A stretch of 64,000 nucleotides of DNA from Candidatus Woesearchaeota archaeon (GTDB taxonomy: Archaea > Nanobdellota > Nanobdellia > Woesearchaeales > BM511): positions 527-64,526 of the forward strand of contig JAAOYB010000050.1 in the NCBI GenBank assembly GCA_018221135.1, given 5' to 3'. The notes beneath the pieces are model-generated. The model was not told the origin of the DNA, did no database searches, and worked only from the letters and a program-made list of their open reading frames with translations. Position 1 is the first letter of the stretch. Every line of letters begins with the position of its first letter. A program made the translations under genes and the position numbers. Positions 8,862 through 25,209 of this stretch are shown piece after piece.

Positions 8862-10346
8862 ATGGTTTACGAAAAAGAAACAATAAAAGTAAAAGGTATG
8901 ACTTGTACTAGTTGCGAAGACATAATAAAAAAAGAAGTAACAAAAAATAAAGGCGTAAAAAGTTTTGAGATTGATTACGCAACCCAGATAGGCCTAGTAA
9001 GTTTTGACCCAGAAAAAACAAGTATGAAAAAAATACTGGGAATAATTGAAGAAGCTGGTTACAACCCAAAGATTATAGGGGGGAAAGCTGAAAAAGATTT
9101 TAGTGGTTCCTATGCTATTAACAAAAAAGTAGTAGGGTACGCTATAGGAATAGTTGGGTTTTTATTAATCGCGTATTTCGTTTTTGGAATAGTTGATACA
9201 GTAAGGCTTCCTCAAATAAGCCAGAACATGGGTTACGGCTTGTTATTATTAGTGGGGTTACTCACTGGTTTTCATTGTGTTAGTATGTGTGGAGGATTCG
9301 TTCTCGGATACACCACAAAGAACTCTAAAGAAGGAAAAAGCAATTATAATGATCATTTCATGTACGGAGCAGGGAAAACAATATCGTACACAATAATAGG
9401 GGCGGGGTTTGGATTACTGGGTTCAATATTTGCTTTCACACCTCTCATGAGAGGAGTAGCAGGCATCTTAGCAGGATTATTTTTAATAATTTTTGGTCTT
9501 AACATGCTCGGATTCTTATCGCCTCTTAGACGTCTCAGACTAAGAACACCAAAGTTCGTATCACGTTTTGTTCGAACCGAATCCACTAAGCACAAAAGCC
9601 CACTTGTTATTGGTTTGCTTAACGGATTAATGATTGCGTGCGGACCACTCCAAGCAATTTATATCATGGCCGCAGGAACCGGGAGCGCGTTAGAAGGCGC
9701 AAAAGTGTTGTTCTTATTCGGTTTAGGAACATTGCCTGTCATGCTCGGTTTTGGTTTCTTAGCGAGTTTTCTGAGCAACAAAGCCACCAATAAAATACTA
9801 AAAGCGAGCGGTTTTGTAGTCATACTACTTGGTGTCATAATGGTTAATAGAGGCTTGGCTCTTAGCGGTACCGGATTTGATACTAACACCTTAGTTGCTA
9901 ACGTATTAGCTAGTAACGACGCATCTTTAACAGATGAAGGAAGCGCTTTAGAATTCGAAGATGGTTACCAAATTATTAGGATGACTGTTAATAGGTATGG
10001 TTGGGAACCAGACAAATTCGTACTAAAAAAAGGTGTTCCTACCAAGTGGATTATTGATGGCGTAGAGATTAATGGTTGTAACAACGCAATCCAAGTACCA
10101 AAATACAACTTAAAATTCGACGTTGAGTACGGCGAGCAAGTAATTGAGTTCACACCAACAAAAGAAGGAGTGATTAGTTGGAGTTGTTGGATGGGCATGA
10201 TACCTGGAGTCTTCGTTGTAAAAGAAGATATTGATTTAAGCGATGCTTCCGCGGTGCAAGGCGCTCTTGAAGAAGTAGTCGTCCCAAGCGGGGGAAGCTG
10301 TGGCGGCGGAGGCGGCGGTGGTTGTGGCTGCGGAGGAGGAAGATGA
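8862..10346 (+). CDS. HMA domain / DsbD_2 (TauE-like) membrane permease / cupredoxin-like domain fusion with C-terminal Gly-Cys-rich tail
   Basis: N-terminal 'GMTCTSCE' HMA; TM core with 'GFHCVSMCGGFVLGY' and 'ACGPLQAIYIMAAG'; C-terminal beta-rich 'WSCWMGMIPGVFVV' cupredoxin_1-like; tail 'SCGGGGGGGCGCGGG'. Confidence 0.65.
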   Translation: MVYEKETIKVKGMTCTSCEDIIKKEVTKNKGVKSFEIDYATQIGLVSFDPEKTSMKKILGIIEEAGYNPKIIGGKAEKDFSGSYAINKKVVGYAIGIVGFLLIAYFVFGIVDTVRLPQISQNMGYGLLLLVGLLTGFHCVSMCGGFVLGYTTKNSKEGKSNYNDHFMYGAGKTISYTIIGAGFGLLGSIFAFTPLMRGVAGILAGLFLIIFGLNMLGFLSPLRRLRLRTPKFVSRFVRTESTKHKSPLVIGLLNGLMIACGPLQAIYIMAAGTGSALEGAKVLFLFGLGTLPVMLGFGFLASFLSNKATNKILKASGFVVILLGVIMVNRGLALSGTGFDTNTLVANVLASNDASLTDEGSALEFEDGYQIIRMTVNRYGWEPDKFVLKKGVPTKWIIDGVEINGCNNAIQVPKYNLKFDVEYGEQVIEFTPTKEGVISWSCWMGMIPGVFVVKEDIDLSDASAVQGALEEVVVPSGGSCGGGGGGGCGCGGGR

Positions 10347-10807
10347 GAAAAGAACTCCTTTTTTTAATTATTATAAGCGCGTCCTTAATTATTACTGGGT
10401 GCACATCAAGTAACAGCGATGGTCTAAGCGGAAAAGTAGCCAGTGACTTAGGAAGCTCAGGAGATGGTTTTGTTAGTATTCCTCTAAGCGACTTATCAAG
10501 TACTTCTAAGTTCTACGAATACGAAGTCGGAGGAGTTAAAGTAAAGTACTTCGCTGTTCTTGGAAGCGACGGAGCGCCAAGAACTGCTTTTGATGCTTGC
10601 GATGTGTGCGGAGGAAGCAAAGGATACCAACAAATAGGAAGCGATATTCGATGCAGAAACTGCGGAAGAGTGTTCAGCATTGACGGCTTAGGAAGCAAAA
10701 ATAAAGGTTATGGTTGTTGGCCTAGTTACTTACCACACCAAGTAGTAGGTGATGACGTCTTATTAAACATAAACGATATAAAAGCAGGCAGTTACAGATT
10801 CGCCTAA
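10343..10807 (+). CDS. Cys-rich lipoprotein (zinc-ribbon-like 'CDVCGG...CRNCG' metal-binding domain)
   Basis: Start ATG overlaps upstream stop (ATGA); lipobox-like 'LIITGC'; four Cys in two CxxC pairs. Confidence 0.5.
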   Translation: MRKELLFLIIISASLIITGCTSSNSDGLSGKVASDLGSSGDGFVSIPLSDLSSTSKFYEYEVGGVKVKYFAVLGSDGAPRTAFDACDVCGGSKGYQQIGSDIRCRNCGRVFSIDGLGSKNKGYGCWPSYLPHQVVGDDVLLNINDIKAGSYRFA

Positions 10808-10946
10808 AAAAAAGATATTGATATGAGGTAAAAAAATAAAATGGTAAAAGATGATGAGTACCTAAAAATAAACAAAGTGGTTTTGTGGCAAGGCGCTACA
10901 GCAATATTAGGAATTCTTTTGATAATCTCAGTTTACACCGGGGGTT

Positions 10947-11624
10947 TTGGAGGAAAAAATGATTCTGCTTCTTGGTAGAGTAGTTGATGATCAAAAAAAC
11001 TTAGAAGCGGCTAAGCCGGCTCAGCCAAGCCAGCCTAGCCCTTCGCCCATCCCTACTCCAAGTCCCAGCGCGGCTCCTACTCCGAGTCCGAATCTTTATA
11101 TGAAGACATTAATCGATGACGACGCAGTAAAAGGGGATCCTAACGCGGTGGTGACTATTGTTGAGTGGAGCGATTTTGAATGCCCGTTCTGTGCTAGGTT
11201 TTATTCAGAGACGCTAGGACAAATACTTAGTGAGTACGTCGATACTGGCAAAGTTAAGTTTGTGTATAGGGATTACCCTCTTAGTTTCCATCCTCAAGCT
11301 CAAAAAGCCGCTGAGGCTGCGGAGTGCGCAGGTGAACAAGATAAGTATTTTGAGATGCATGACTTATTATTTGAGAAAGGCGTAAAAGGAGGCGTTGCTA
11401 GTTTTAAGCAGTTCGCGTCTGACATAGGTCTTGACACAGCGAAGTTTAATACTTGTCTGGATACTGGTGCTATGGCGTCTGAAGTAGCTAAGGATATGAG
11501 AGATGGTCAAAGCCTTGGTATTCGAGGAACACCCGGCTTCATCATTAATGGTCAACTAGTTAGCGGGGCTCAGCCTTTCAGCGCGTTTAAACAAGTAATC
11601 GATGCCAAACTAGCACAAGGATAA
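10947..11624 (+). CDS. DsbA-family thiol:disulfide oxidoreductase (thioredoxin fold, 'CPFC'); N-terminal TM anchor appears to lie in another frame (10841..10978)
   Basis: 'WSDFECPFCARFY' active site; Pro/Ser-rich linker; upstream 45-aa TM-containing ORF 10841..10978 in -1 frame joined across an A6 run. Confidence 0.7.
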   Translation: MEEKMILLLGRVVDDQKNLEAAKPAQPSQPSPSPIPTPSPSAAPTPSPNLYMKTLIDDDAVKGDPNAVVTIVEWSDFECPFCARFYSETLGQILSEYVDTGKVKFVYRDYPLSFHPQAQKAAEAAECAGEQDKYFEMHDLLFEKGVKGGVASFKQFASDIGLDTAKFNTCLDTGAMASEVAKDMRDGQSLGIRGTPGFIINGQLVSGAQPFSAFKQVIDAKLAQG

Positions 11625-11631
11625 AAAAAAC

Positions 11632-11666
11632 TTTTTGTTTTTTTTTCTCTTATTTTTTTGATTTTG
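11632..11666 (+). terminator. oligo-T tract after dsbA-like gene, putative terminator
   Basis: T-rich 35-nt run following stop at 11624. Confidence 0.3.
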
Positions 11667-11693
11667 CAGGAAGTTTCAGATTCACTTAAACGT

Positions 11694-11710
11694 AACATTT
11701 AAATATTTGA
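11694..11710 (+). promoter_or_regulatory. putative archaeal TATA box / palindromic operator 'ATTTAAATATTT' upstream of arsR (leaderless arrangement)
   Basis: TATA-like palindrome ~25 nt upstream of ATG 11728. Confidence 0.35.
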
Positions 11711-11727
11711 ACAACTATTCAACTATT

Positions 11728-12072
11728 ATGGATGTGGAAACAATAAAAAAAATTAAGCAGTTTTTTACTGCGCTATCAGATGAAACTCGTCTAAAAATTT
11801 TATTAGAGCTTATAAAAAGTCCAAAGAATGTAAATGAGATTCATAAAGCAATTCCAAACATAACTCTTTCAGCTGTTTCACATCAACTAAAACAAATGAA
11901 AGATATAGACATAATTTTTTATGAAAGAAAAGGAAGAGAAAAAATTTATTCTTTATCTGAAAAATTTTGTTGGTGTATACTTCGTGATGCTACAAATCAT
12001 TTTAAAAGAGGCGGAAAAAACTGTCCTCATTGCATAGAAATGCAAAAAGAGCATATTAAAAAAAGTAAATGA
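11728..12072 (+). CDS. ArsR/SmtB-family metal-responsive transcriptional regulator
   Basis: HTH 'LSDETRLKILLELIKSPKNVNEI...LSAVSHQLKQMKD'; C-terminal 'CPHC'; ATG at 11728 preferred over track TTG at 11707; gene is markedly more AT-rich than its neighbours. Confidence 0.75.
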   Translation: MDVETIKKIKQFFTALSDETRLKILLELIKSPKNVNEIHKAIPNITLSAVSHQLKQMKDIDIIFYERKGREKIYSLSEKFCWCILRDATNHFKRGGKNCPHCIEMQKEHIKKSK

Positions 12073-12088
12073 GTGTTGAGGTTTTCAA

Positions 12089-14293
12089 ATGAGTAAAAAA
12101 AGTGTTAATATTAAGGGTATGCACTGCGCTAGTTGCGTTTTTAGAGTAGAAAAAGCTATTAAGACAGTTGAAGGAGTCAGCAATGCTAATGTTAACTTAG
12201 CAACTCACAAAGCAAGTTTTGATCTAAGCGATGAAGCTAACCTTGAAAAAGTGGCGGTTGCTATCAAAAAATCTGGGTACGACGCGCAAATAGCGCAAGA
12301 AGCAAAAACAAATGATGATTCTGAAAAATTAGAAAGAGAAAAAGAAATCAACACACTTAAGACAAAAACTTATACTGCTTTGCTATTAAGTATTCCTCTT
12401 CTTTACTTCGCCATGGGAGCTCACGTCGGCCTACCAACTTTTTTTAGTGGTAAAACCATGGCGTTAGTACAATTCTTGATAACTACTCCTATAATACTTG
12501 TTGGTTACGAGTTTTACACTAAAGGTTTTATGAGCGTATATAAAGCCAAGACTGCTAATATGGACACCTTAGTAGCGGTTGGCACTGGAAGCGCGTATGT
12601 TTACAGCGTGGCCTCTAGTATCATCGGAAATTATGACAGCTTGTTTTTTGAAACCGCTGGAATCCTTATAGCATTCATACTCCTAGGCAGGTATTTAGAG
12701 GCTAACGCCAAGGGTAAGACTAGTGAAAGCATCAAGAAATTGATGGGTTTAAAAGCCAAGACAGCCATTGTTATCAGGGGCAAAAAAGAGTTAGAAATCC
12801 CAATTGATGAAGTAGTAGTAGGAGACATCGTACTTGTAAAACCAGGTCAAAAAATCCCTGTTGACGGCGTAGTCATAAACGGTCACTCATCAGTTGATGA
12901 ATCCATGATTAGTGGAGAGAGCATCCCTGTTGAGAAAACTAAAGGCGACAAAGTAGTTGGGGCAACGATTAACAAAACAGGGAGTTTTAAGTTTAAAGCA
13001 ACTGGGGTTGGAAGCGACACAGTCCTAGCTCAGATAATAAAATTAGTAGAAGAAGCACAAGGAAGCAAAGCCCCCATTCAAAAACTTGCTGATGTCATAG
13101 CAGCTTATTTTGTGCCAGTAGTTATTAGCATAGCAATTATTAGTAGCGGAATATATTTTTTTGTTAACGGATTCGCTTTTGCTCTCTCAATATTCGTGGC
13201 TGTCTTAATCATTGCGTGTCCGTGTGCTTTAGGTCTTGCTACGCCAACAGCGATAATCGTTGGCACAGGACTAGGAGCAGAGAACGGAGTGCTTTTTAAG
13301 AGCGCTGAGAGCCTTCAAGAAACAAGAAAGATAAGCGCTTTAGTCTTTGACAAAACAGGCACTATCACAAAAGGAGAACCAGAAGTAACAGACGTGATTA
13401 ATTTTAATAAGTTTAGTGATAGAGAAGTCTTAAGATTCGCAGGCATAGCTGAGAAGAACTCCGAGCACCCTTTAGCCGACGCGGTTCTAAAAGCTACTAA
13501 GAAGAAAAAAATAAGTGTTGTCAGCCCATCTAGTTTTAATAGCATCACAGGAAAAGGCGTGGTTGCCAACCTAAAAAAAGACAAGATAATCATAGGTAAA
13601 ATCTCCTTATTAAAAGAGCACTCAATAAGCACTAAAAAAGCAGAAGACTCTGTTTCAAAACTTGAAAGCCAAGGAAAAACTGTTATCTTAGTAGGCAAGA
13701 ACAAAGAATTAATTGGGGTGATAGGAGTAGCAGATACTTTAAAACCTCATAGCAAAGAAGCAATACAAACAATTAACTCTTTAGGAATCGATACTTTCAT
13801 GATAACAGGAGATAATAATAAGACCGCTAACGCAATCGCTAAACAAGTAGGCATCAAAAATGTAATCGCTGAGGTGATGCCAAACCAGAAAGCCTCCGAG
13901 ATTAGAGGTCTTCAAGAAAGCTATCTAAGCGTTGGGATGGTAGGTGACGGGATCAACGACGCCCCTGCATTATCCCAATCAGACGTGGGCTTCGCAGTTG
14001 GTAGCGGGACAGACGTAGCAATTGAATCTGGAGACGTCGTATTAGTAAGAGATGACCTTCGAAGCGTGCTTACCAGCATCGAATTATCAAAGTATACTTT
14101 TAGAAAAATAAAACAGAACTTGTTCTGGGCGTTTTTTTATAACGTGCTTGGAATCCCCTTAGCAGCAGGTGTTCTTTACCCTTTCACCGGGTTTTTATTA
14201 AATCCCATCATCGCTGGTGGAGCCATGGCGTTTAGCAGTGTGAGCGTTGTTAGTAACACATTACTTATGAAGAATTACAAAGCCAAGTTTTAA
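12089..14293 (+). CDS. copA: copper-translocating P1B-type ATPase CopA
   Basis: N-terminal HMA 'GMHCASCV'; 'CPC' in TM6 '[11 protein letters not shown]'; 'DKTGTIT'; 'GDGINDAP'; 734 aa. Confidence 0.92.
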
Positions 14294-14296
14294 AGG

Positions 14297-15826
14297 TTGT
14301 TTTTATCGAGGAAAAAGTTTATAAAGGCAAAAACACATATTTTTCTCTTAATGCCTGCTAGTAAAAAAAAAGAGGAATTATTTAAAGAACTAAGCTACAA
14401 AGGCTACCACCCGAAAGGAGAAGCTCCTGATGAGGAATTATGGGAGTTTCAAAGCCTCGTAGACGCAGGACCCTCAGGGTACCCTCAACCAATCAGGCAC
14501 TACGAGCTTCTCATTGAGAGACAAGGGGAGAACTTAGAGAGCGCTTATTACTTCTTATATCAACTAATCGGCGTCGATATAGGTCATAGAATAGAAAAAA
14601 TAATTGATACTTACGCTGCGAGTCAAGCTTCTTCCCAATTCGGAAACCTCCAAGCAAGGCTTAGCATGCAGCAAGGCCAGATAAGCCAATACTTAAAAGG
14701 CATCAGCGACATGGTAAAAGGATTGTTTCAGCTTGTTCGAGAACTTCGAATAATCGAGGAGAGATTGCAGTTTTACTTTGACACCTACGATGATGAGAGC
14801 GGAAACAAAGACTCAAGCGAAATCGTCCTAAAAGGCTTGTGGGTTGACCAAGTAGAAGGAGGAGCCAAGAATCCCTCGAGCGTGTATGGATTAGCAGCTA
14901 ATGTCGGCTTTACAATACTGCCTGACTTATTTTTTAGGATAAGAGTAAAAAACGCTAAGCGCATAGACGAAAGAGTTGATGAGTTAAAGTTCAACGAGAA
15001 AGTAAAAGAGATCCTTAAAAGAAAACTAAGACAATACCATGAGTGGAAAAAAAGAACTTTTAGCGAGTTAAAAACAAGAAAGCAATTCTTAATAAAATAT
15101 TTGCGTCAACATTACGAATCAATACAACTCTATATTAGTTGGATAAAACCATATCTTAGAAACGTCAAAAACTTACAAATGGCTAAGAAGTTAGAGAGTA
15201 ACAACGAACTCATCAGTAGTTTTGAGAGTAACATCTCAGAAATAGAATTCTTAGGAATAAAAAAAGGGAAAGGGGGTTATAACAGCGTAGCTGTTGTTAA
15301 CATGCTCCACAGAAGCCGCCCCGAACTTAATTATCACGCTCAAGAATACCAAAACAAAGGCCCCACCCACACAGGTAAGCTACGACTCAACATCCGGGGT
15401 TATGCTTGGACTGATAAACAAATCGAGGATTACAAAGAATACAAGCTTAACGAAGACTTAGAATTATTAAGCACTGTTGATGAAAGCATCCAAGCAGCTA
15501 TGGACGCACTTGGAGACGACTTAAAAAAGTATTTGAAAACAAAAGGAGAAGAAATAGACAAACCCATTACTTCTAAGAAGAAAAAAGTTAGGCAGCCAGG
15601 AGCAGCGGATCCTTTCCTTAGCGTGTTTAAGGGCTTCGCCGAGCTTGGGAGAAGTTTTTTCCCCGCCAAACCAAAAAGTGATGGGAGCGGTGAGAAGAAA
15701 CCAACCAAAAAGGATGTGTGGCAGAGTAAAAAAGACATTGTTGGTTCTGTTAAGACCGCTGAGGTAGTGACTTGGCTCGCGTTTAAGAATTTCAAAAAAG
15801 GCAATGGCATGCTTACGTGGTGGTAA
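14297..15826 (+). CDS. large hypothetical protein with no recognisable domain (start uncertain; TTG at 14297 or ATG at 14351)
   Basis: Long ORF 4 nt after copA stop and 3 nt before next ORF; real amino-acid composition; no motifs recognised. Confidence 0.45.
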   Translation: MFLSRKKFIKAKTHIFLLMPASKKKEELFKELSYKGYHPKGEAPDEELWEFQSLVDAGPSGYPQPIRHYELLIERQGENLESAYYFLYQLIGVDIGHRIEKIIDTYAASQASSQFGNLQARLSMQQGQISQYLKGISDMVKGLFQLVRELRIIEERLQFYFDTYDDESGNKDSSEIVLKGLWVDQVEGGAKNPSSVYGLAANVGFTILPDLFFRIRVKNAKRIDERVDELKFNEKVKEILKRKLRQYHEWKKRTFSELKTRKQFLIKYLRQHYESIQLYISWIKPYLRNVKNLQMAKKLESNNELISSFESNISEIEFLGIKKGKGGYNSVAVVNMLHRSRPELNYHAQEYQNKGPTHTGKLRLNIRGYAWTDKQIEDYKEYKLNEDLELLSTVDESIQAAMDALGDDLKKYLKTKGEEIDKPITSKKKKVRQPGAADPFLSVFKGFAELGRSFFPAKPKSDGSGEKKPTKKDVWQSKKDIVGSVKTAEVVTWLAFKNFKKGNGMLTWW

Positions 15827-15829
15827 GAA

Positions 15830-17761
15830 ATGGCTGGTGAATATCATAGCGTTATGGACAAAGAATTCGCGCCTAACATCCAAGAAATAGGCGCTAGTAC
15901 TAATCCTTTCCAACACCAAACCGAAGCTCTAAAAGCAAGGATTTTTCATGGTGCTAACAAAGTCGAATTTTCTTTTTTTGGACAAGGAAAAACCAATAAG
16001 GAACAACCCGGCCCCGAAACGTTTGGAAGTCGTGAGAGAGAAGACATGAAAGCCATGGCTGAGTTTAACAAAGTCCAAACCAGCACTCACGCAACAGTTG
16101 GTATTAATGGTCTTAGCGGTTTTAATTTCCAAAACAACAGTTTTAGCAGCGAACAACAACAACAAAGCCTGGACGAATTAAAAAAAGCCATTGATTTCGC
16201 CTCAGAAGCAAGCACTGGCGGAGCCGTTGTTTTCCACACAGGCGAAGGCCCCAGAAGTATGTGGAGTACGTTTAACAAAGAATTCCAACTTCATGACAAA
16301 GAAGAAAAAGAAGAAGTACATTACTTAGTTGACAAAGACGACAAAAGAATTATCGGCGCTGTTAAAGAAGACGCGTACATCTTTGAGCCCCAACAAAAAA
16401 TCGGTAAAGACGGCGATAAAGAGTGGGTTACAAAAACTGATGGGACTTGCGAAATAGACGAATTAACCGGAGGGAAAATCCCTGTTTATGAACAGACAAA
16501 ACAAGGAGACATCGATGTTAAAAAAATAACTTTTAAGGAATGGCGTCAAAGAGAAGAAGAAAAAATGGGAAAAAGTGGTTTGAATCCTCACACTTTTGAT
16601 AATAGAAAGAAGATAACCAAAGATTTTTTTAAGGAACAACAAGAAGCCCAGATCCAGTATCAACTAGGGCAATCCAGGATTTATATTGATCATTATAAAA
16701 AGGGTTTAAAGCAAAGAGAGAAACTAAAAGAAGCCCTAGAGCATTACAAGAAAATGAAAGGTGCTATGAGCGATGAAGACTGGAAGAATAAACATACAAT
16801 GTGGGACCCTGAGACTAGGAGTTTTGAGGGCTTAACACTACCTGACTACACAGATCCTATCAAACACCTAGAAAACAAGATAAAAGATAATGTTAGAGAG
16901 ATAGGGTACGGGCGAGAAATCGCTCTTGGGGGTATCAGAGCTGCAAAAGAAGCTTATGAAAAAGTAAAAAACGCTGAGTTCATAGAAGAATTCGCTCTTG
17001 AACAAGCAAGTAATCAAATGGCGGAAGCCGCGGTTTACGCCCATGAAAAAACCAAGCAAAGAATAGCTAAAGGAGACACGTCCTTAGAGAAGAACCCTTT
17101 GTTTATAAGCCCTGAAGGTTGGAGACCAGAAGATTTCGGAAGCCACCCTGAGGAGCTCAGAAAACTAATAAATAATGCAAGGAAGAAAACCAGTGATACT
17201 TTAGTCAAACAAAAAGGGTACTCAGAGACTAAAGCTGAAAAAGTAGCAGAGCAAAGTATTAAAGCAACCATCGATATAGGTCACATGAATACTTGGCGCA
17301 AGTTCTTTGTAAAAAAAAGCGGTGAGAGCGACGAAGCGTATCATAAGCGTTTTGATAATTGGCTTATTAGAGAAACTGATAAATTAGCTAAAGAAGGCCT
17401 CATCGGTCACGTTCACCTAAGCGATAACTACGGATATAACGATGAACACTTAGCTATCGGTGATGGTAACGCTCCGATTAAGGATTTCATGGCTGTTATG
17501 AGAAAAAACGGAGTTGACGATTTCATAGTTGAAGCAGGCAGTTTTAACCCTATGAGCGCGCTTCCCGATGCTTGGGAGCATTTGGGAAGCCCTGTTTACA
17601 GGGTCGGAACCCCAACCGCTGGGACACCAGGGGATAGTTGGGGTTATTTTCATCAAGGTTACTTCGGAGGAACTGAAGGTCCTCGCTTCGTCGTTGGCGA
17701 TTACTCTCCAAGCGATGATTATAAGGGTTCACCATTTTATACCGGGACTCCTTTAGAGTAA
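15830..17761 (+). CDS. xylose-isomerase-like TIM-barrel (AP-endonuclease-2 fold) protein with ~300-aa charged K/E-rich insertion
   Basis: 'AIDFASEASTGGAVVFHTGE' and C-terminal 'GHVHLSDNYGYNDEHLAIGDGNAPIKDFMAVMRKNGVDDFIVEAG' match the XI-like barrel signature; central coiled-coil-like insert. Confidence 0.5.
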   Translation: MAGEYHSVMDKEFAPNIQEIGASTNPFQHQTEALKARIFHGANKVEFSFFGQGKTNKEQPGPETFGSREREDMKAMAEFNKVQTSTHATVGINGLSGFNFQNNSFSSEQQQQSLDELKKAIDFASEASTGGAVVFHTGEGPRSMWSTFNKEFQLHDKEEKEEVHYLVDKDDKRIIGAVKEDAYIFEPQQKIGKDGDKEWVTKTDGTCEIDELTGGKIPVYEQTKQGDIDVKKITFKEWRQREEEKMGKSGLNPHTFDNRKKITKDFFKEQQEAQIQYQLGQSRIYIDHYKKGLKQREKLKEALEHYKKMKGAMSDEDWKNKHTMWDPETRSFEGLTLPDYTDPIKHLENKIKDNVREIGYGREIALGGIRAAKEAYEKVKNAEFIEEFALEQASNQMAEAAVYAHEKTKQRIAKGDTSLEKNPLFISPEGWRPEDFGSHPEELRKLINNARKKTSDTLVKQKGYSETKAEKVAEQSIKATIDIGHMNTWRKFFVKKSGESDEAYHKRFDNWLIRETDKLAKEGLIGHVHLSDNYGYNDEHLAIGDGNAPIKDFMAVMRKNGVDDFIVEAGSFNPMSALPDAWEHLGSPVYRVGTPTAGTPGDSWGYFHQGYFGGTEGPRFVVGDYSPSDDYKGSPFYTGTPLE

Positions 17762-17771
17762 AGTAATAAGT

Positions 17772-17781
17772 TTTATATAAA
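17772..17781 (+). promoter_or_regulatory. putative TATA box 'TTTTATATAA'
   Basis: AT-rich box ~50 nt upstream of 17829 start. Confidence 0.3.
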
Positions 17782-17828
17782 ACAAAACAAAAAAATGTTT
17801 TTGTACATAAATTAGAGGTTGACTAGAA

Positions 17829-18656
17829 TTGATAAGCGATATTGATAAGCGCGAGAATCCTAATAAAAAGAATTATCCTAAAGAAGAAATCGACGTCGCG
17901 TATAAGTTTAGTTCTAAGATTTATAAGGAGATGGGTGATTACATAAAAGCAATCGTGCTTTTTGGCAGCACTGCGCGCAAGACTAAGACAAAAGGCGACA
18001 TTGACATCCTCATAGTATTAGATGATGTAAGCATTGTTCTTAGCCCAGAACTGATGGAGGCGTACAAAGTCATCAGCCAAAAAATAATAGGGGAGATTAG
18101 TCGACGGCTTCACGTAACAACTCTTAAGTACAGCACTTTTTTTGAGTTATCAAAAGCAGGGGATCCTATAGCCATTAATATTTTGCGAGACGGCGTACCA
18201 CTATTAGACACCGGTTTTTTTGAGCCATATCAATCTTTGCTGTCTCAGGGGCGCATCAGGCCTACTAGGGAGAGCGTCATGGTTTACCATAACAAAGCTA
18301 GCAACACTGTTGAGAACAGCAAGAGACACTTATTAAGCGCTGTTATGGATTTGTACTGGGCTGTTGTTGACTCTGCGCACGCCGCTCTTATGAGCGTTGG
18401 AGAAATCCCTCCTAGCCCTATGCACATCGCTGACTTAGTCGAAGAAAAATTTGTTAAGCCAGGACACCTCGATAAGAAATACGCTAGTATTGTCAGAAAT
18501 TTTTATAAGTTATCTAAGATGATTACTTATCGTGAGCTTCGAGAAGTAAAGGGTTCTGAGTACGATAACCATTTAAGAGACGCTTTGGAATTCTTAGAAA
18601 AAATGGATGAGTTCGTCCTTGACAAAAAAAAGAAGAGCGCTAGTAAGAAAAAATAA
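17829..18656 (+). CDS. minimal nucleotidyltransferase (Pol-beta superfamily) fused to HEPN-like domain
   Basis: 'LFGSTARKTKTKGDIDILIVLDD' NTase motif; C-terminal helical 'LLSAVMDLYWAVVDSAHAALM'; TTG start. Confidence 0.6.
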   Translation: MISDIDKRENPNKKNYPKEEIDVAYKFSSKIYKEMGDYIKAIVLFGSTARKTKTKGDIDILIVLDDVSIVLSPELMEAYKVISQKIIGEISRRLHVTTLKYSTFFELSKAGDPIAINILRDGVPLLDTGFFEPYQSLLSQGRIRPTRESVMVYHNKASNTVENSKRHLLSAVMDLYWAVVDSAHAALMSVGEIPPSPMHIADLVEEKFVKPGHLDKKYASIVRNFYKLSKMITYRELREVKGSEYDNHLRDALEFLEKMDEFVLDKKKKSASKKK

Positions 18657-18658
18657 TT

Positions 18659-19066
18659 TTAGTGTTTAGTGCTTCCTTGTTTTATGTTTGGTACTTCTTT
18701 TCTTACTACTAAGTCTATGAAGTAATCAGTTATGCTAAAACAGTCTTTTGTTCTTTGCGTTAATTGCGGATTCTCGTCGTAGAACAATAAGTTGTTTTGG
18801 TAGTCAAATAGCCTATAACCTTTTGTTGGGCTTATCTCAAGTATTAGTTCTTCGCACATTATCTCGAAATCTTTTTTTTCTCTTGCTAAAATATCTTCTA
18901 AGAGTAAAGGGAGTAATTCTTTTGAGTGCAAGTAGTATTTGTGAAAAATCTCTGGACTCAGAATCATCTCATTCCTATCACTATTAACCTCGCTCCAAAC
19001 ATGGTGGTCATAGAAGAGCACCCTATAATTATGTAAGTTTAACTCATAATCTAATCGCATAATCAT
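18659..19066 (-). CDS. hypothetical protein (AT-rich island)
   Basis: ORF track; low GC relative to flanks. Confidence 0.4.
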   Translation of the reverse strand: MIMRLDYELNLHNYRVLFYDHHVWSEVNSDRNEMILSPEIFHKYYLHSKELLPLLLEDILAREKKDFEIMCEELILEISPTKGYRLFDYQNNLLFYDENPQLTQRTKDCFSITDYFIDLVVRKEVPNIKQGSTKH

Positions 19067-19079
19067 AAATAAAAAGTTC

Positions 19080-20552
19080 TTATTCTTTTTTTGGCCTAGG
19101 AAGCTTACGAAGATTATTTTTTATTGTTTGTTCTAACTTAGTTATTGGTTTTGCTGCTGTTTCTTTAAGTAGCTTTTCCATGTTAACATCCACTCTACTG
19201 CTATTAATAAATGAATGTTCAATCAATTCACTTGCTTGTTCTTGATCAAAACTAGTAATATAAATTGATAGTGCTGCTAGCCTTGCTTTATCTTTTTGAC
19301 TAATTTCTCTAAAAAGAGTGCTTCTAAGATTATGATATCCTGATTCTATACTAAAATTTCTTGAAGTATGTCTTAATTTTTGTAATTCACTCCACTTATA
19401 ATTTTTTAGTTCTGAAAAAATTAGAGGTATTTGTTCAGGTTCAATTTCAGATAAGCTAAGCATGCTTGTTGCTAAACCTTCAATTGTAAGAATATTGAAT
19501 AATTCCGGATTGGATAATGAGTATGCTAGTAGTCTTTCTCCTTCTGGACCAAAGTGTCCTGTTAATTCTAAGAGTTTTGGTATGCCTTGTGCGTAAAGAA
19601 TGCTTTTTGAGGCTCCTTGGTTAATCATGGCCTCGCTTATCTCTCTGCACATCTTTATATCGTAGCCATACTCTTTTAGTTTGGCAAATACTTCTTTTGC
19701 ACCTTTCATTAATGTCTTGTGAAGAGTAAGTGCTTCTCCCCGCATAAAATGTTCATCAGTTTTTTCTATGCTATCAGCTAAGGAGTACCCAAGATTTATA
19801 TGGTAAAAACTAGCTAGGCTTTTGAAGGCGCCAATAACTTCTTTTTTTGATTGAGTAGTGCTTTTTAGAATCGTCCATTTAGTGTCTTTTGTCAAGCTTA
19901 ACAAGTACTCTGCTGCGGTGTCACTAATTCTATGAACCCCTAATAAATAATCTTTTGGAGACATATCACTTCTAATAAATTGGCGATGATACTCATTTAC
20001 TAATCCTCCCAAATCTTTTAATAATGCGACTTCGCTTGTTTTTTGTTCCCCTATTTGTTCTGAGCGTAGATAATCAAAGAGTCCTCTTCCAAGGACTAGG
20101 CTTGCTTCTGAGATTATTCTTCCTATAGCTTTTTGTTCGGGTGTGTAATTACTAGATGAAAAAAGGTTTCTGAGATGTCCATCAAAATCACCGGCTGCAA
20201 ATATTTCTATTGCGAAAGCCCCTCCTTCCTCACTAAGCAATTTGCCTTCCAAATCTGGGTTTGTGTGTGTTATTTCGTGAAGAAGCGCGGCGTAGTCTCC
20301 TGGTCTAAAATAGATGTCCCCTGTGCTTAGGTCTGCTCTTCCAAAAAAAGTTGAGCCACCAATGTTTCTTAGTTTTTCTCCTACTTCTACTACTTTTCCT
20401 TTGAAGTCTTCTTTGTTTGGAAATAAATCTTCTATACCTAAGTAATTTAGCCAAGAATAAACGTTTCTAATATATTCTTCTCCTACGCTTTTAACATAGA
20501 AGTTCTGGCCGATGACGTTGTTATCAAATCGTTTCTTTACTATTCCCCCCAT
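19080..20552 (-). CDS. hypothetical 490-aa protein with HExxH zincin-like motif ('LLHEITHT')
   Basis: Single HExxH; no other recognised domain; AT-rich. Confidence 0.45.
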   Translation of the reverse strand: MGGIVKKRFDNNVIGQNFYVKSVGEEYIRNVYSWLNYLGIEDLFPNKEDFKGKVVEVGEKLRNIGGSTFFGRADLSTGDIYFRPGDYAALLHEITHTNPDLEGKLLSEEGGAFAIEIFAAGDFDGHLRNLFSSSNYTPEQKAIGRIISEASLVLGRGLFDYLRSEQIGEQKTSEVALLKDLGGLVNEYHRQFIRSDMSPKDYLLGVHRISDTAAEYLLSLTKDTKWTILKSTTQSKKEVIGAFKSLASFYHINLGYSLADSIEKTDEHFMRGEALTLHKTLMKGAKEVFAKLKEYGYDIKMCREISEAMINQGASKSILYAQGIPKLLELTGHFGPEGERLLAYSLSNPELFNILTIEGLATSMLSLSEIEPEQIPLIFSELKNYKWSELQKLRHTSRNFSIESGYHNLRSTLFREISQKDKARLAALSIYITSFDQEQASELIEHSFINSSRVDVNMEKLLKETAAKPITKLEQTIKNNLRKLPRPKKE

Positions 20553-20631
20553 AACATAGCGTAGTTATGAATTAATATTTAAAATATGTGGAAAATTACT
20601 ATAAGATAGTAGTAAGTTTTATAACTTTGTT

Positions 20632-21075
20632 GTGGATACTTCTTTTTTTATGAAAGAAGGAGAAGTCAAATATTATTTGGATTTTCTTATTTATGGAGAG
20701 CCCTTTAAAGGTGTTATTCATTTAATCCCTGACGTGCCAGCGGCGTGGGAAACCCTAAGAAAAAACAGAGGTTTCGAAGGTAAAAATTTTACTTATGTTA
20801 GAAGAGAAGCGTTTCTTAACCCGAATAAGTTTGTTAGTGATTACAAAGAAAACCTCTCGTTTAGCGGTTTAGATGTTAAAAGTATTTTCTATTTTTTTTC
20901 TCCACCCATGGCCTCCATAGAAGTGCTTGTTGAAGATGAGGATGTTCTTCGTGAAAACCTTGACTTTGTAGATTATTACGGAGCTAAGACGAGGAGTTTA
21001 GAAGACGTTTTCGAAGCTGCTCTTAGACAATCACTAACTAATACTTTCAAAGAACACACACAAAGAAATTTTTAA
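20632..21075 (+). CDS. hypothetical protein
   Basis: ORF track only. Confidence 0.35.
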   Translation: MDTSFFMKEGEVKYYLDFLIYGEPFKGVIHLIPDVPAAWETLRKNRGFEGKNFTYVRREAFLNPNKFVSDYKENLSFSGLDVKSIFYFFSPPMASIEVLVEDEDVLRENLDFVDYYGAKTRSLEDVFEAALRQSLTNTFKEHTQRNF

Positions 21076-21085
21076 TAAAATAATT

Positions 21086-21667
21086 TTAGTGCAGGTATTG
21101 GATTAGGTTTTCTTCTGACTTCTTTTCTTTTCTTGTTTCTTCATCGAGTCCTGAGCTTAACTTCTTTGGGTTTACTGCGTTGTTATCATGAACGAATTTC
21201 GCTGCTGCTATCATTGCGTCGCTCCAAATAGCTTCGTTTTCGATTTTTCCTGTTTCCAGATTTCTTCTTGATATCCTGAATTGCTTATCCGATTTCGAGT
21301 AATATATTATGTTATCAATCGCGTCATAAATTCTTATACCGCCCGAAGAAAACGGTCTTGGCAAGTATAATGAATAGTGTTCTGTGTCTATGCTTAGGTC
21401 TCGTCCTCCAACCCGATTTCTTATCCTGTTTACTAAGAAGGGAAAAATCTTTGATTCATCATTTCTAAACAATTCGCTATTCACGCGCATCCTAGCCTCA
21501 AAAATATTCTTATTACCCTCCCATACGTGCAGCCTTAATAAGTCAAAGAAATCAGGGGTTAGAACTTTGTCATATATTGATTTCCCACTATAAAGAGCGA
21601 CTTTAAAAATATTAACCCAATAAGTTTCATCAGGGAAGTCCTTAAGTGATTCTTCTAAGCGCCCCAT
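21086..21667 (-). CDS. hypothetical protein
   Basis: ORF track only. Confidence 0.4.
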   Translation of the reverse strand: MGRLEESLKDFPDETYWVNIFKVALYSGKSIYDKVLTPDFFDLLRLHVWEGNKNIFEARMRVNSELFRNDESKIFPFLVNRIRNRVGGRDLSIDTEHYSLYLPRPFSSGGIRIYDAIDNIIYYSKSDKQFRISRRNLETGKIENEAIWSDAMIAAAKFVHDNNAVNPKKLSSGLDEETRKEKKSEENLIQYLH

Positions 21668-24036: not shown

Positions 24037-25209
24037 ATGGTTGAAAAAATATTTTTTACAAGTGAAAGCGTCACAGAAGGACACCCAGACAAAGTCTGCG
24101 ACCAAATCTCAGACGCAATACTAGACGCAGTGTACGCCGAAGACCCAAACGCGAGAGTCGCAATCGAGACCCTAGTAAAAACAGGTTTCGTAATAGTCGC
24201 AGGAGAATTAACGACAACAGCGTATATCGAAATCCAAAACGTTGTACGAGACACCCTAAAAGAAATAGGTTACGACTCAGGCAAAGCTGGTTTTAACGGA
24301 GAAACTTGCGGAGTTCTATTAGCTATTAGCGAACAAAGCCCTGATATTAGCCAAGGAGTAAGCGAAGGAGAAGCACAAGGCAAAGAAGGAGCAGAACAAG
24401 GAGCAGGAGACCAAGGAATGATGTTTGGATACGCGACAAACGAAACCCCTGAACTCATGCCGCTACCTATAACACTAGCTCAAAAACTAACTATGAAACT
24501 TGCAGAGATAAGAAAAAAAGGTGAATTAAATTATCTTATGCCTGATGGTAAAAGCCAAGTAACCGTCGAGTATGATGATGGAAAACCAACCAGGGTAGAC
24601 GCTGTTGTTATCTCAACGCACCACGCAGAAAACGTAACTCAAGAACAAATAAGAGAAGACGTAATAGCAAAGATAATCAAACCAGTATGTGGTGATTACT
24701 TAGATTCGAACACCAAAATCTTTGTTAACCCAACAGGAAAATTCGTTGTTGGAGGACCAGTAGCAGACGCTGGAGTCACAGGTAGAAAAATCATTGTTGA
24801 CACCTATGGCGGGATGGGGCGTCACGGCGGAGGAGCGTTCTCAGGAAAAGACCCTTCAAAAGTAGATAGGAGCGCTGCTTACATGACTAGGTACATCGCA
24901 AAGAACATAGTCGCGGCAGGCCTTGCTGATAGGTGCGAAGTTCAACTAAGCTACGCTATCGGAGTCGCTGAGCCTGTAAGCGTATTAGTTGACACGTTTG
25001 GAACCGGCAAAATAAGTGAATCAGAGCTTAGCAAGTTAATCAGGGGAAACTTCGGATTAAAACCTGCAGAGATCATCGAAGCGCTTAATCTTAGACGACC
25101 AATCTATAAGAAAACAGCTTCGTACGGGCACTTTGGTCGCGAAGGAAACGAGTTTACTTGGGAGAAAACCGATAAAGTAGAAGCATTAAAAAACGCAGCT
25201 TCCAAATAA
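24037..25209 (+). CDS. metK: S-adenosylmethionine synthetase, bacterial/eukaryal MetK type
   Basis: '[24 protein letters not shown]', '[12 protein letters not shown]', '[19 protein letters not shown]' canonical MetK motifs. Confidence 0.92.

Follow-up and report, generated by a model that had tools for sequence, protein, structure and literature searches.

A conserved Woesearchaeota operon that joins a protein of an uncharacterised family to an endonuclease-IV-like TIM barrel with a large insertion and to a nucleotidyltransferase

Among enzymes of the xylose-isomerase-like fold, epimerases and isomerases use an E-D-H-E metal site only, which is mono- or binuclear in IolI, the D-tagatose/D-allulose 3-epimerases and xylose isomerase; endonuclease IV (Nfo) is a trinuclear-zinc apurinic/apyrimidinic (AP) endonuclease and 3'-repair diesterase. 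The structure of MJ1311 of Methanocaldococcus jannaschii (3WQO), a 'D-tagatose 3-epimerase-like protein', has been available since 2014 with the protein remaining functionally orphan, and the study of this structure reportedly found in MJ1311 the same nine residues as in endonuclease IV. One published list names MJ1311 as the endonuclease IV homologue predicted for M. jannaschii (PMC2770678). Here, we describe a barrel related to both, encoded in a 64,000-nucleotide stretch of a Candidatus Woesearchaeota archaeon (contig JAAOYB010000050.1, positions 527 to 64,526; hereafter the window), where it is the second of three genes of an operon. These genes, the first two of which encode proteins 100% identical to NCBI entries of a 64.8 kb Candidatus Woesearchaeota contig, are:

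14351-15826, plus strand: open reading frame (ORF) A, first gene, 491 amino acids from its probable true start
15830-17761, plus strand: ORF-B, second gene, 643 amino acids, ATG start
17829-18656, plus strand: nucleotidyltransferase, third gene, 275 amino acids, Pol-beta/MNT-type

The best explanation overall, to which we give a probability of about 40%, is that of a housekeeping operon in which a metal-dependent ORF-B works with ORF-A as its scaffold in the processing of nucleic-acid ends; for the mechanistic part, that is, a nucleic-acid end processing complex, our estimate is roughly one in three. The conservation of the operon was assessed in 80 fetched loci carrying an ORF-A homologue, with flanks of up to 8 kb. 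ORF-B adjoins ORF-A on the same strand in 67 of the 69 loci where this could be judged (in 10 others the contig ends too early), and lies downstream of it in 66, two loci being without ORF-B at this place. The two genes are therefore a conserved module, in line with a sequence-only reading of the window, made without database searches, that had taken the pair for a candidate functional module; the finding is more general than that reading supposed. The nucleotidyltransferase of the window is orthologous to the gene behind ORF-B in 40 of the 66 loci. About half of the loci encode, between ORF-A and ORF-B, a small K/E-rich protein of about 200 amino acids, which is absent from the window and whose two sequence clusters are homologous (hhalign 97%), and some have a small S-adenosylmethionine (SAM)-methyltransferase-like gene behind ORF-B. 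In a divergent lineage, whose B protein aligns to that of the window over less than half its length at 30-34% identity, the order is A (460 amino acids), small protein, B (660 amino acids) and nucleotidyltransferase (280 amino acids). The A-B-nucleotidyltransferase arrangement is also kept in the closest relatives, where the upstream genes differ: a cupin and a hypothetical protein in archaeon D22 (L083), an HD protein and a polyprenyl synthase in L084. The genes that recur around the operon are housekeeping genes, not metal genes, and vary from locus to locus (Kef-type antiporter, NnrD, NFACT-R, YhbY, PheRS alpha/beta, RtcA, Tyw3, eRF1, FEN1 and PolB); among them RtcA, NFACT-R, YhbY, PheRS, Tyw3, eRF1, FEN1 and PolB act on RNA, on DNA or in translation. 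With high confidence, we regard the three genes as a conserved operon without a link to copA; in our best explanation, it is vertically inherited, of housekeeping type, specific to the Woesearchaeota lineage and unrelated to the arsR-copA unit that precedes it in the window. A literature search found no published description of an A-B-nucleotidyltransferase operon.

ORF-B has about 65 homologues (E-values down to 0) and is organised as follows:

15872-16249, plus strand: N-terminal half of the barrel, amino acids about 15-140, strands 1-4, with the invariant H87 and H136
16250-17101, plus strand: insertion, amino acids about 141-424, between strands 4 and 5
17102-17599, plus strand: C-terminal half of the barrel, amino acids about 425-590, with E429, D482, H485, H529, D532, N533, D538, H540 and E568
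17600-17758, plus strand: C-terminal tail, amino acids 591-643

The sequence-only reading had recognised a xylose-isomerase-like TIM barrel from the motifs VVFHTGE (amino acids 133-139), TIDIGHMN (480-487) and GHVHLSDN...DEHLAIGDG...IVEAG (526-570), and this assignment holds. ORF-B matches PF01261 (AP_endonuc_2) of Pfam in two separated stretches (56.6 bits, cutoff 31.1; E 4e-15), and all 57 sequences of the family alignment match it too; in a search with a profile of these homologues, the one relative of solved structure is MJ1311 (3WQO; E 3e-13), with which the family has VVxHxG, DIGHxN and HVHxxDNxGYxDEHLxIGxG in common; and in the AlphaFold2 model the barrel is a (beta/alpha)8 that superposes on solved family members. 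We are thus highly confident that ORF-B is, as predicted from sequence and model, an MJ1311/endonuclease-IV-like TIM barrel with an insertion. It differs from MJ1311, a compact single-domain barrel with a chain length of 293, in its 643 amino acids with a structured insertion of 285 residues and a conserved tail of 50, and in its gene context, a conserved operon that also encodes ORF-A and a nucleotidyltransferase.

Among the positions that are invariant or near-invariant in the ORF-B family are H87, H136, E429, D482, H485, H529, D532, N533, D538, H540 and E568. Comparison with Nfo was made by global pairwise alignment, by hhalign and by motif. In the global pairwise alignment, H69, D179, H182, H216, D229 and H231 of Nfo correspond to H87, D482, H485, H529, D538 and H540 of ORF-B. 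With hhalign, the global mode applied to the ORF-B core and E. coli Nfo gave a meaningless alignment, and the local mode covered the C-terminal D-x-H...E segment only, placing D229-x-H231...E261 of Nfo on D538-x-H540...E568. The remaining two ligands match by motif, LNFH109PGS resembling VVFH136TGE, and VIE145NT the ORF-B family consensus APE429N. Across the 57 sequences, each of the nine equivalents of the endonuclease IV ligands is either invariant or reaches at least 90% conservation. In addition to the E-D-H-E site of the sugar isomerases and epimerases, ORF-B has five conserved His/Asp ligands (H87, H136, H485, D538 and H540), which point to an endonuclease-IV-type trinuclear centre and to phosphoester chemistry. 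Because the nine positions of the trinuclear site are filled, phosphoester hydrolysis is favoured over sugar isomerisation, and we infer that ORF-B is a phosphoesterase.

The same residues bear on the view that the operon serves a sugar or metabolite pathway, with B as a sugar(-phosphate) isomerase/epimerase, the nucleotidyltransferase activating or modifying a small molecule or glycan, and A as a structural or regulatory partner. The five additional ligands go beyond the E-D-H-E site of epimerases. ORF-B moreover matches no epimerase or isomerase equivalog model, its best score, with fructoselysine 3-epimerase, being 15-17 bits, far under the cutoff of 305, and a Pol-beta-type nucleotidyltransferase does not have the sugar-1-phosphate nucleotidyltransferase fold. 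We consider this pathway unlikely, and the database label 'sugar phosphate isomerase/epimerase' on ORF-B is hereby corrected. On the other side, ORF-B is not to be filed as an Nfo orthologue, since none of the NCBIfam endonuclease IV models matches it at E <= 10, even when the insertion is deleted. The residues with which Nfo enters DNA after its first His (Y72 and L73) are not conserved in ORF-B, and the large cap insertion is new relative to endonuclease IV. Architecturally, ORF-B represents a new version of a known fold.

The insertion, of about 285 residues, starts right after strand 4 and H136 (VVFH136TGE), ends at strand 5 (ISPE429) and lies on the catalytic face of the barrel in the AlphaFold2 model. 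It had been described from the letters alone as a charged, coiled-coil-like segment of about 300 residues; its length and its richness in K and E (14.8% and 12.6%) are close to that description, but the model shows a beta subdomain (163-234) and three long helices (256-312, 343-380 and 385-413), with a predicted local distance difference test (pLDDT) score mostly above 85, rather than a plain coiled coil. Although less conserved than the barrel, the insertion is kept, with some variation in length, in every homologue examined. An apparently insertion-less homologue (L039, 3365-4660, 431 amino acids) proved to be an artefact of a masked N-run and not a natural deletion. Neither the insertion alone nor any of the 57 family members matched anything in Pfam besides PF01261, and ORF-B had no match in PADLOC or PHROGs. 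The tail is modelled at low confidence; its sequence is conserved, rich in aromatic residues, Gly and Pro, and ends in ...PFYxGxPLE. The tail is a candidate partner-docking peptide.

ORF-A has more than 1,678 homologues (E-values down to 0). In a set of 1.84 billion representatives, its family accounts for 703 clusters at 50% identity, and it occurs in at least 488 species-level genomes. The 80 loci are labelled Woesearchaeota, Nanoarchaeota, generic archaeon or Methanosarcinales, and the family is lineage-restricted. Many records titled 'uncultured Methanosarcinales archaeon' (e.g. L005, L009, L010, L013, L017 and L023) carry the Woesearchaeota-type A-B-nucleotidyltransferase cluster with the same neighbours, and their labels are probably wrong. 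As the sequence-only reading had noted, the protein has no recognisable domain: it belongs to an uncharacterised family that corresponds to no known family or fold in Pfam, NCBIfam, PADLOC, PHROGs or the PDB. Pfam gave only a sub-threshold DUF3800 match in one of 58 family members, NCBIfam, PADLOC and PHROGs gave none, and the family profile found no PDB sequence at E <= 10. The absence of a PHROGs match for either protein also removed a viral reading of ORF-A and ORF-B. Architectures resembling Nop5, prefoldin, CapZ or ClyA/MFP were rejected for ORF-A, as the matches were not significant or the topology differed. Its longer homologues show no informative domain fusion, the one ABC/zinc-ribbon match looking like a chimeric fragment. 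Two of them (L016, 2995-4824; L026, 7629-9392) have His/Gly/Asp-rich N-terminal extensions (MSGHDDHGGGHDAGHGGGD...), and homologues of other clades have K/E-rich ones.

The AlphaFold2 model of ORF-A (pLDDT 80; predicted template modelling score 0.60) begins with strands (28-90), a 52-residue helix (95-146) and short helices (153-210), and continues with a 67-residue helix (216-282), three long strands (294-354) and further helices, so that the predicted shape is elongated, with a beta-sheet base and two very long helices. The best-conserved region comprises amino acids about 100-280 and peaks at 161-180 (KGLWVDQVEGGAKNPSSVYG); a highly conserved segment of amino acids about 155-200 sits between the two long helices, and the most conserved segment of the protein contains its most hydrophobic stretch, SVYGLAANVGFTILPDLFF. 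The C-terminal helix is conserved as well and ends in ...GMLTWW. ORF-A is basic (isoelectric point 9.3) and ORF-B acidic (5.8). The beta sheet split by a long helical hairpin, the hydrophobic SVYGLAANVGFTILPDLFF in the most conserved segment and the aromatic C-terminus could suit a membrane or cell-architecture apparatus, with A as an alpha-hairpin protein that acts on membranes or forms filaments and B as a phosphodiesterase whose substrates are lipid head groups or envelope polymers, an apparatus possibly linked to DPANN symbiosis, and a Foldseek search of the PDB with the model did return weak matches to EmrA and LipC (membrane-fusion adaptors), PaxB, colicin Ia, Cyt1Aa, ESCRT-III and BAR proteins. 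Each of these, however, covers about 100 residues of generic helical hairpin at E >= 0.05, the hydrophobic segment is modelled with high confidence as packed helices, neither ORF-A nor ORF-B has a predicted signal peptide or transmembrane segment, and the identity of 43-63% among the homologues and loci examined is above what we would expect of host-interaction proteins. Such an apparatus therefore appears quite improbable.

The third gene is preceded by elements of its own:

17771-17782, plus strand: TATA-like box TTTTATATAAAA, in the spacer that separates ORF-B from the nucleotidyltransferase gene
17815-17819, plus strand: GAGGT, Shine-Dalgarno-like site, downstream of TTTTATATAAAA and before the nucleotidyltransferase

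Its product matches PF01909 (NTP_transf_2; E 5.8e-7) and PF18765 (Polbeta; E 8.9e-7), has a conserved helical C-terminal domain and keeps the catalytic motif GS...DID (G46, S47, D57-I-D59) in an alignment of 45 sequences, from which it is predicted to be catalytically intact. The earlier identification of a nucleotidyltransferase-HEPN protein at this place stands for the Pol-beta-type domain and not for HEPN, for which there was no Pfam match at E <= 0.1 and no conserved Rx4-6H in the 45 sequences. MntA antitoxins and kanamycin nucleotidyltransferase have the same NTP_transf_2/Polbeta domain, GS...DxD motif and helical C-terminal domain, and the protein gives weak matches to models of MntA antitoxins, of CBASS cyclases and of PADLOC candidate systems. 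These could speak for a toxin-antitoxin or defence locus that has the MNT-type nucleotidyltransferase at its centre and A and B in the role of effector or sensor. Unlike MntA-type systems, the third gene is highly conserved and syntenic instead of mobile, is in every case linked to ORF-A and ORF-B, and is without a HepT/HEPN partner or HEPN catalytic motif. It is 75% identical to its counterpart in L001, a genome whose ORF-A is only 55% identical to that of the window; the genes are single-copy and lie in synteny among housekeeping genes across the related loci examined; and ORF-A and ORF-B have no match in the PADLOC defence models or in PHROGs. We consider a toxin-antitoxin or defence function effectively excluded.

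The gene upstream of the operon is copA, which encodes a true P-type ATPase carrying an HMA domain (Pfam). The features at this boundary are:

12089-14293, plus strand: copA, stop codon at 14291-14293
14300-14304, plus strand: run of five T directly behind the copA stop, read from the sequence
14310-14317, plus strand: purine-rich stretch GGAAAAAG, resembling a transcription factor B recognition element (BRE), part of the ORF-A promoter-like element
14318-14325, plus strand: TATA box TTTATAAA, starting 33 nucleotides before ATG 14351

From the tight packing behind copA, the sequence-only reading had drawn a co-transcription with the copper ATPase and a possible link to metal stress; on this view, A and B would handle copper damage or homeostasis. 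The genes indeed lie directly behind copA on the same strand, a mechanically called ORF with a TTG start (14297-15826, plus strand, 509 amino acids) beginning 3 nucleotides after the copA stop; ORF-B would be a metalloenzyme; and the distant ORF-A homologues of L016 and L026 have His/Gly-rich N-termini. The homologue counts confirm both packed ORFs as real genes, and ORF-B does follow ORF-A by 3 nucleotides, but the 509-residue version of ORF-A is probably 18 codons too long. Because the NCBI record (protein P0066, 100% identity and coverage) and the family alignment, whose consensus starts at the same position, agree on ATG 14351, this is probably the true start. It leaves a gap of 57 nucleotides behind copA that contains the T-run, a candidate archaeal oligo-T termination signal between copA and ORF-A, and the TATA box.

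As a scan for sigma-70 promoters and intrinsic terminators gave chance-level output and is unsuited to archaea, we analysed TATA positions upstream of the 64 non-overlapping ORFs of at least 100 amino acids in the window. Of the 58 occurrences of TATA-like heptamers, 29 have their start between -35 and -31, and the ORF-A box, at -33/-32, occupies this modal promoter position; its spacing to ATG 14351 implies a leaderless or near-leaderless mRNA. The same analysis found a TATA-like box at -30 of arsR (11728) and none upstream of copA or ORF-B. Therefore arsR-copA looks like one unit, the promoter of copA being that of arsR, and ORF-A opens another. Since ORF-B has no box and begins 3 nucleotides after the ORF-A stop (elsewhere, their coding regions touch or overlap), ORF-A and ORF-B probably form a bicistronic, translationally coupled message from the ORF-A promoter. 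Finally, copA was found in none of 85 related loci, closest relatives included, within fetched flanks of up to 8 kb. The adjacency of ORF-A and ORF-B to copA is an accident of the gene order of this genome, and the metal-stress view is, like the defence one, effectively excluded.

Window-wide, the concentration of about half of the TATA-like boxes at -35 to -31 from start codons suggests that many transcripts of this organism are leaderless or nearly so. In one clade (L006-L014, L019 and L024-L026), a near-palindrome, CTAT[AG]TTAGTATAGA, lies 5-45 nucleotides upstream of the ORF-A homologues, with a second, AAGTATATT-like element 20-25 nucleotides further upstream; the motif, a possible conserved promoter or operator, does not occur ahead of the ORF-A of the window. 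Ahead of the operon, window positions 8862-14293 encode a metal and thiol-redox cluster (an HMA-DsbD_2 fusion with a Gly/Cys-rich tail, an FtrD-like protein, a DsbA-like thioredoxin, ArsR and CopA). Of all versions of the neighbourhood, only that of this genome has the cluster, which looks like a genome-specific insertion beside the operon, because its genes are absent near ORF-A in every related locus. Behind the operon, between the nucleotidyltransferase and Tyw3, positions 18659-21667 hold four ORFs (135, 490, 147 and 193 amino acids) with no match in Pfam or PHROGs and no homologue in related loci, in a stretch of lower G+C content (0.35 versus 0.40); it too looks like an insertion, since L001 has Tyw3, together with a CARDB-like protein, directly behind the nucleotidyltransferase. 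Further on, at 24037-25209, lies an S-adenosylmethionine synthetase of the bacterial/eukaryotic MetK type (Pfam S-AdoMet_synt_N/M/C) instead of the archaeal one; the relative archaeon D22 (L083, Pfam-confirmed) shares it, as L001 probably does (66% identical, BLAST). Rfam and tRNA scans of the whole window gave no match, and inspection by eye showed no PCNA-binding (PIP) motif at the C-termini of ORF-A, ORF-B or the nucleotidyltransferase.

In the housekeeping reading that we prefer, the operon would consist of A, the small K/E-rich protein (in about half of the genomes), B, sometimes the small methyltransferase, and the nucleotidyltransferase, with A and B transcribed from the promoter of A and probably translationally coupled. 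B would be a metal-dependent enzyme, a TIM barrel of the MJ1311/endonuclease IV type, and would hydrolyse phosphoesters, its 285-residue insertion forming a cap and arm for the binding of substrate or partner on the catalytic face, and A would bind B as a scaffold or substrate-binding subunit. We infer a complex of A and B from the translational coupling, the strict synteny, the opposite charge and the conserved terminal peptides of the two proteins. Such a complex may process RNA or DNA ends: B would take off a 3' or phosphodiester group that is damaged or blocks the end, the nucleotidyltransferase would add nucleotides, and the methyltransferase of some genomes would modify the product.

Several points weigh against this mechanism. 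The E. coli Nfo sequence and its nine ligand numbers are presumed correct, the residue identities being as expected at all nine, and three of the nine ligand matches, H136, E429 and E568, depend on motif comparison, for E568 together with the local hhalign alignment. The absence of ORF-B from the curated endonuclease IV models counts here as well, as does MJ1311 itself, which is said to lack the DNA-binding groove of endonuclease IV and to have no known activity. For MNT-type nucleotidyltransferases, proteins and small molecules are substrates as well. Pfam recognises no nucleic-acid-binding domain in ORF-A or in the insertion of ORF-B, the physical association of A and B is deduced from gene order and coupling, and the neighbouring genes may be coincidental in compact DPANN genomes.

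Much of the gene content of DPANN archaea consists of hypothetical proteins, and we know of no Woesearchaeota-specific conserved module with an assigned function. In its distribution, ORF-A resembles the 51 'Module 98' families, mostly function-unassigned, that are widespread in Pacearchaeota and Woesearchaeota (Castelle et al. 2021, PMC8204110). That paper does not describe this operon, and a search of its text found no mention of nucleotidyltransferase or coiled-coil proteins. No known family accommodates ORF-A, the pair is syntenic in other genomes, and the TIM-barrel motifs align with a solved relative. In a bolder form, which we hold only tentatively and think rather doubtful, the three gene products and the small K/E-rich protein of many genomes would together be a new machine that defines Woesearchaeota and their relatives, combining a protein of new fold with a trinuclear-metal barrel redirected by its cap to a new substrate. 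If this were true, the machine could serve RNA 3'-end healing and tailing or, alternatively, a DNA-repair route that replaces the canonical AP endonucleases in these reduced genomes. The operon bears on the function of MJ1311-type barrels and not on copper biology. A protein without detectable relatives next to recognisable catalytic scaffolds, the endonuclease IV ligands and the nucleotidyltransferase, offers a concrete and inexpensive biochemical entry point, and since the proteins of the operon are as conserved as the neighbouring housekeeping enzymes, they probably do something central for the lineage.

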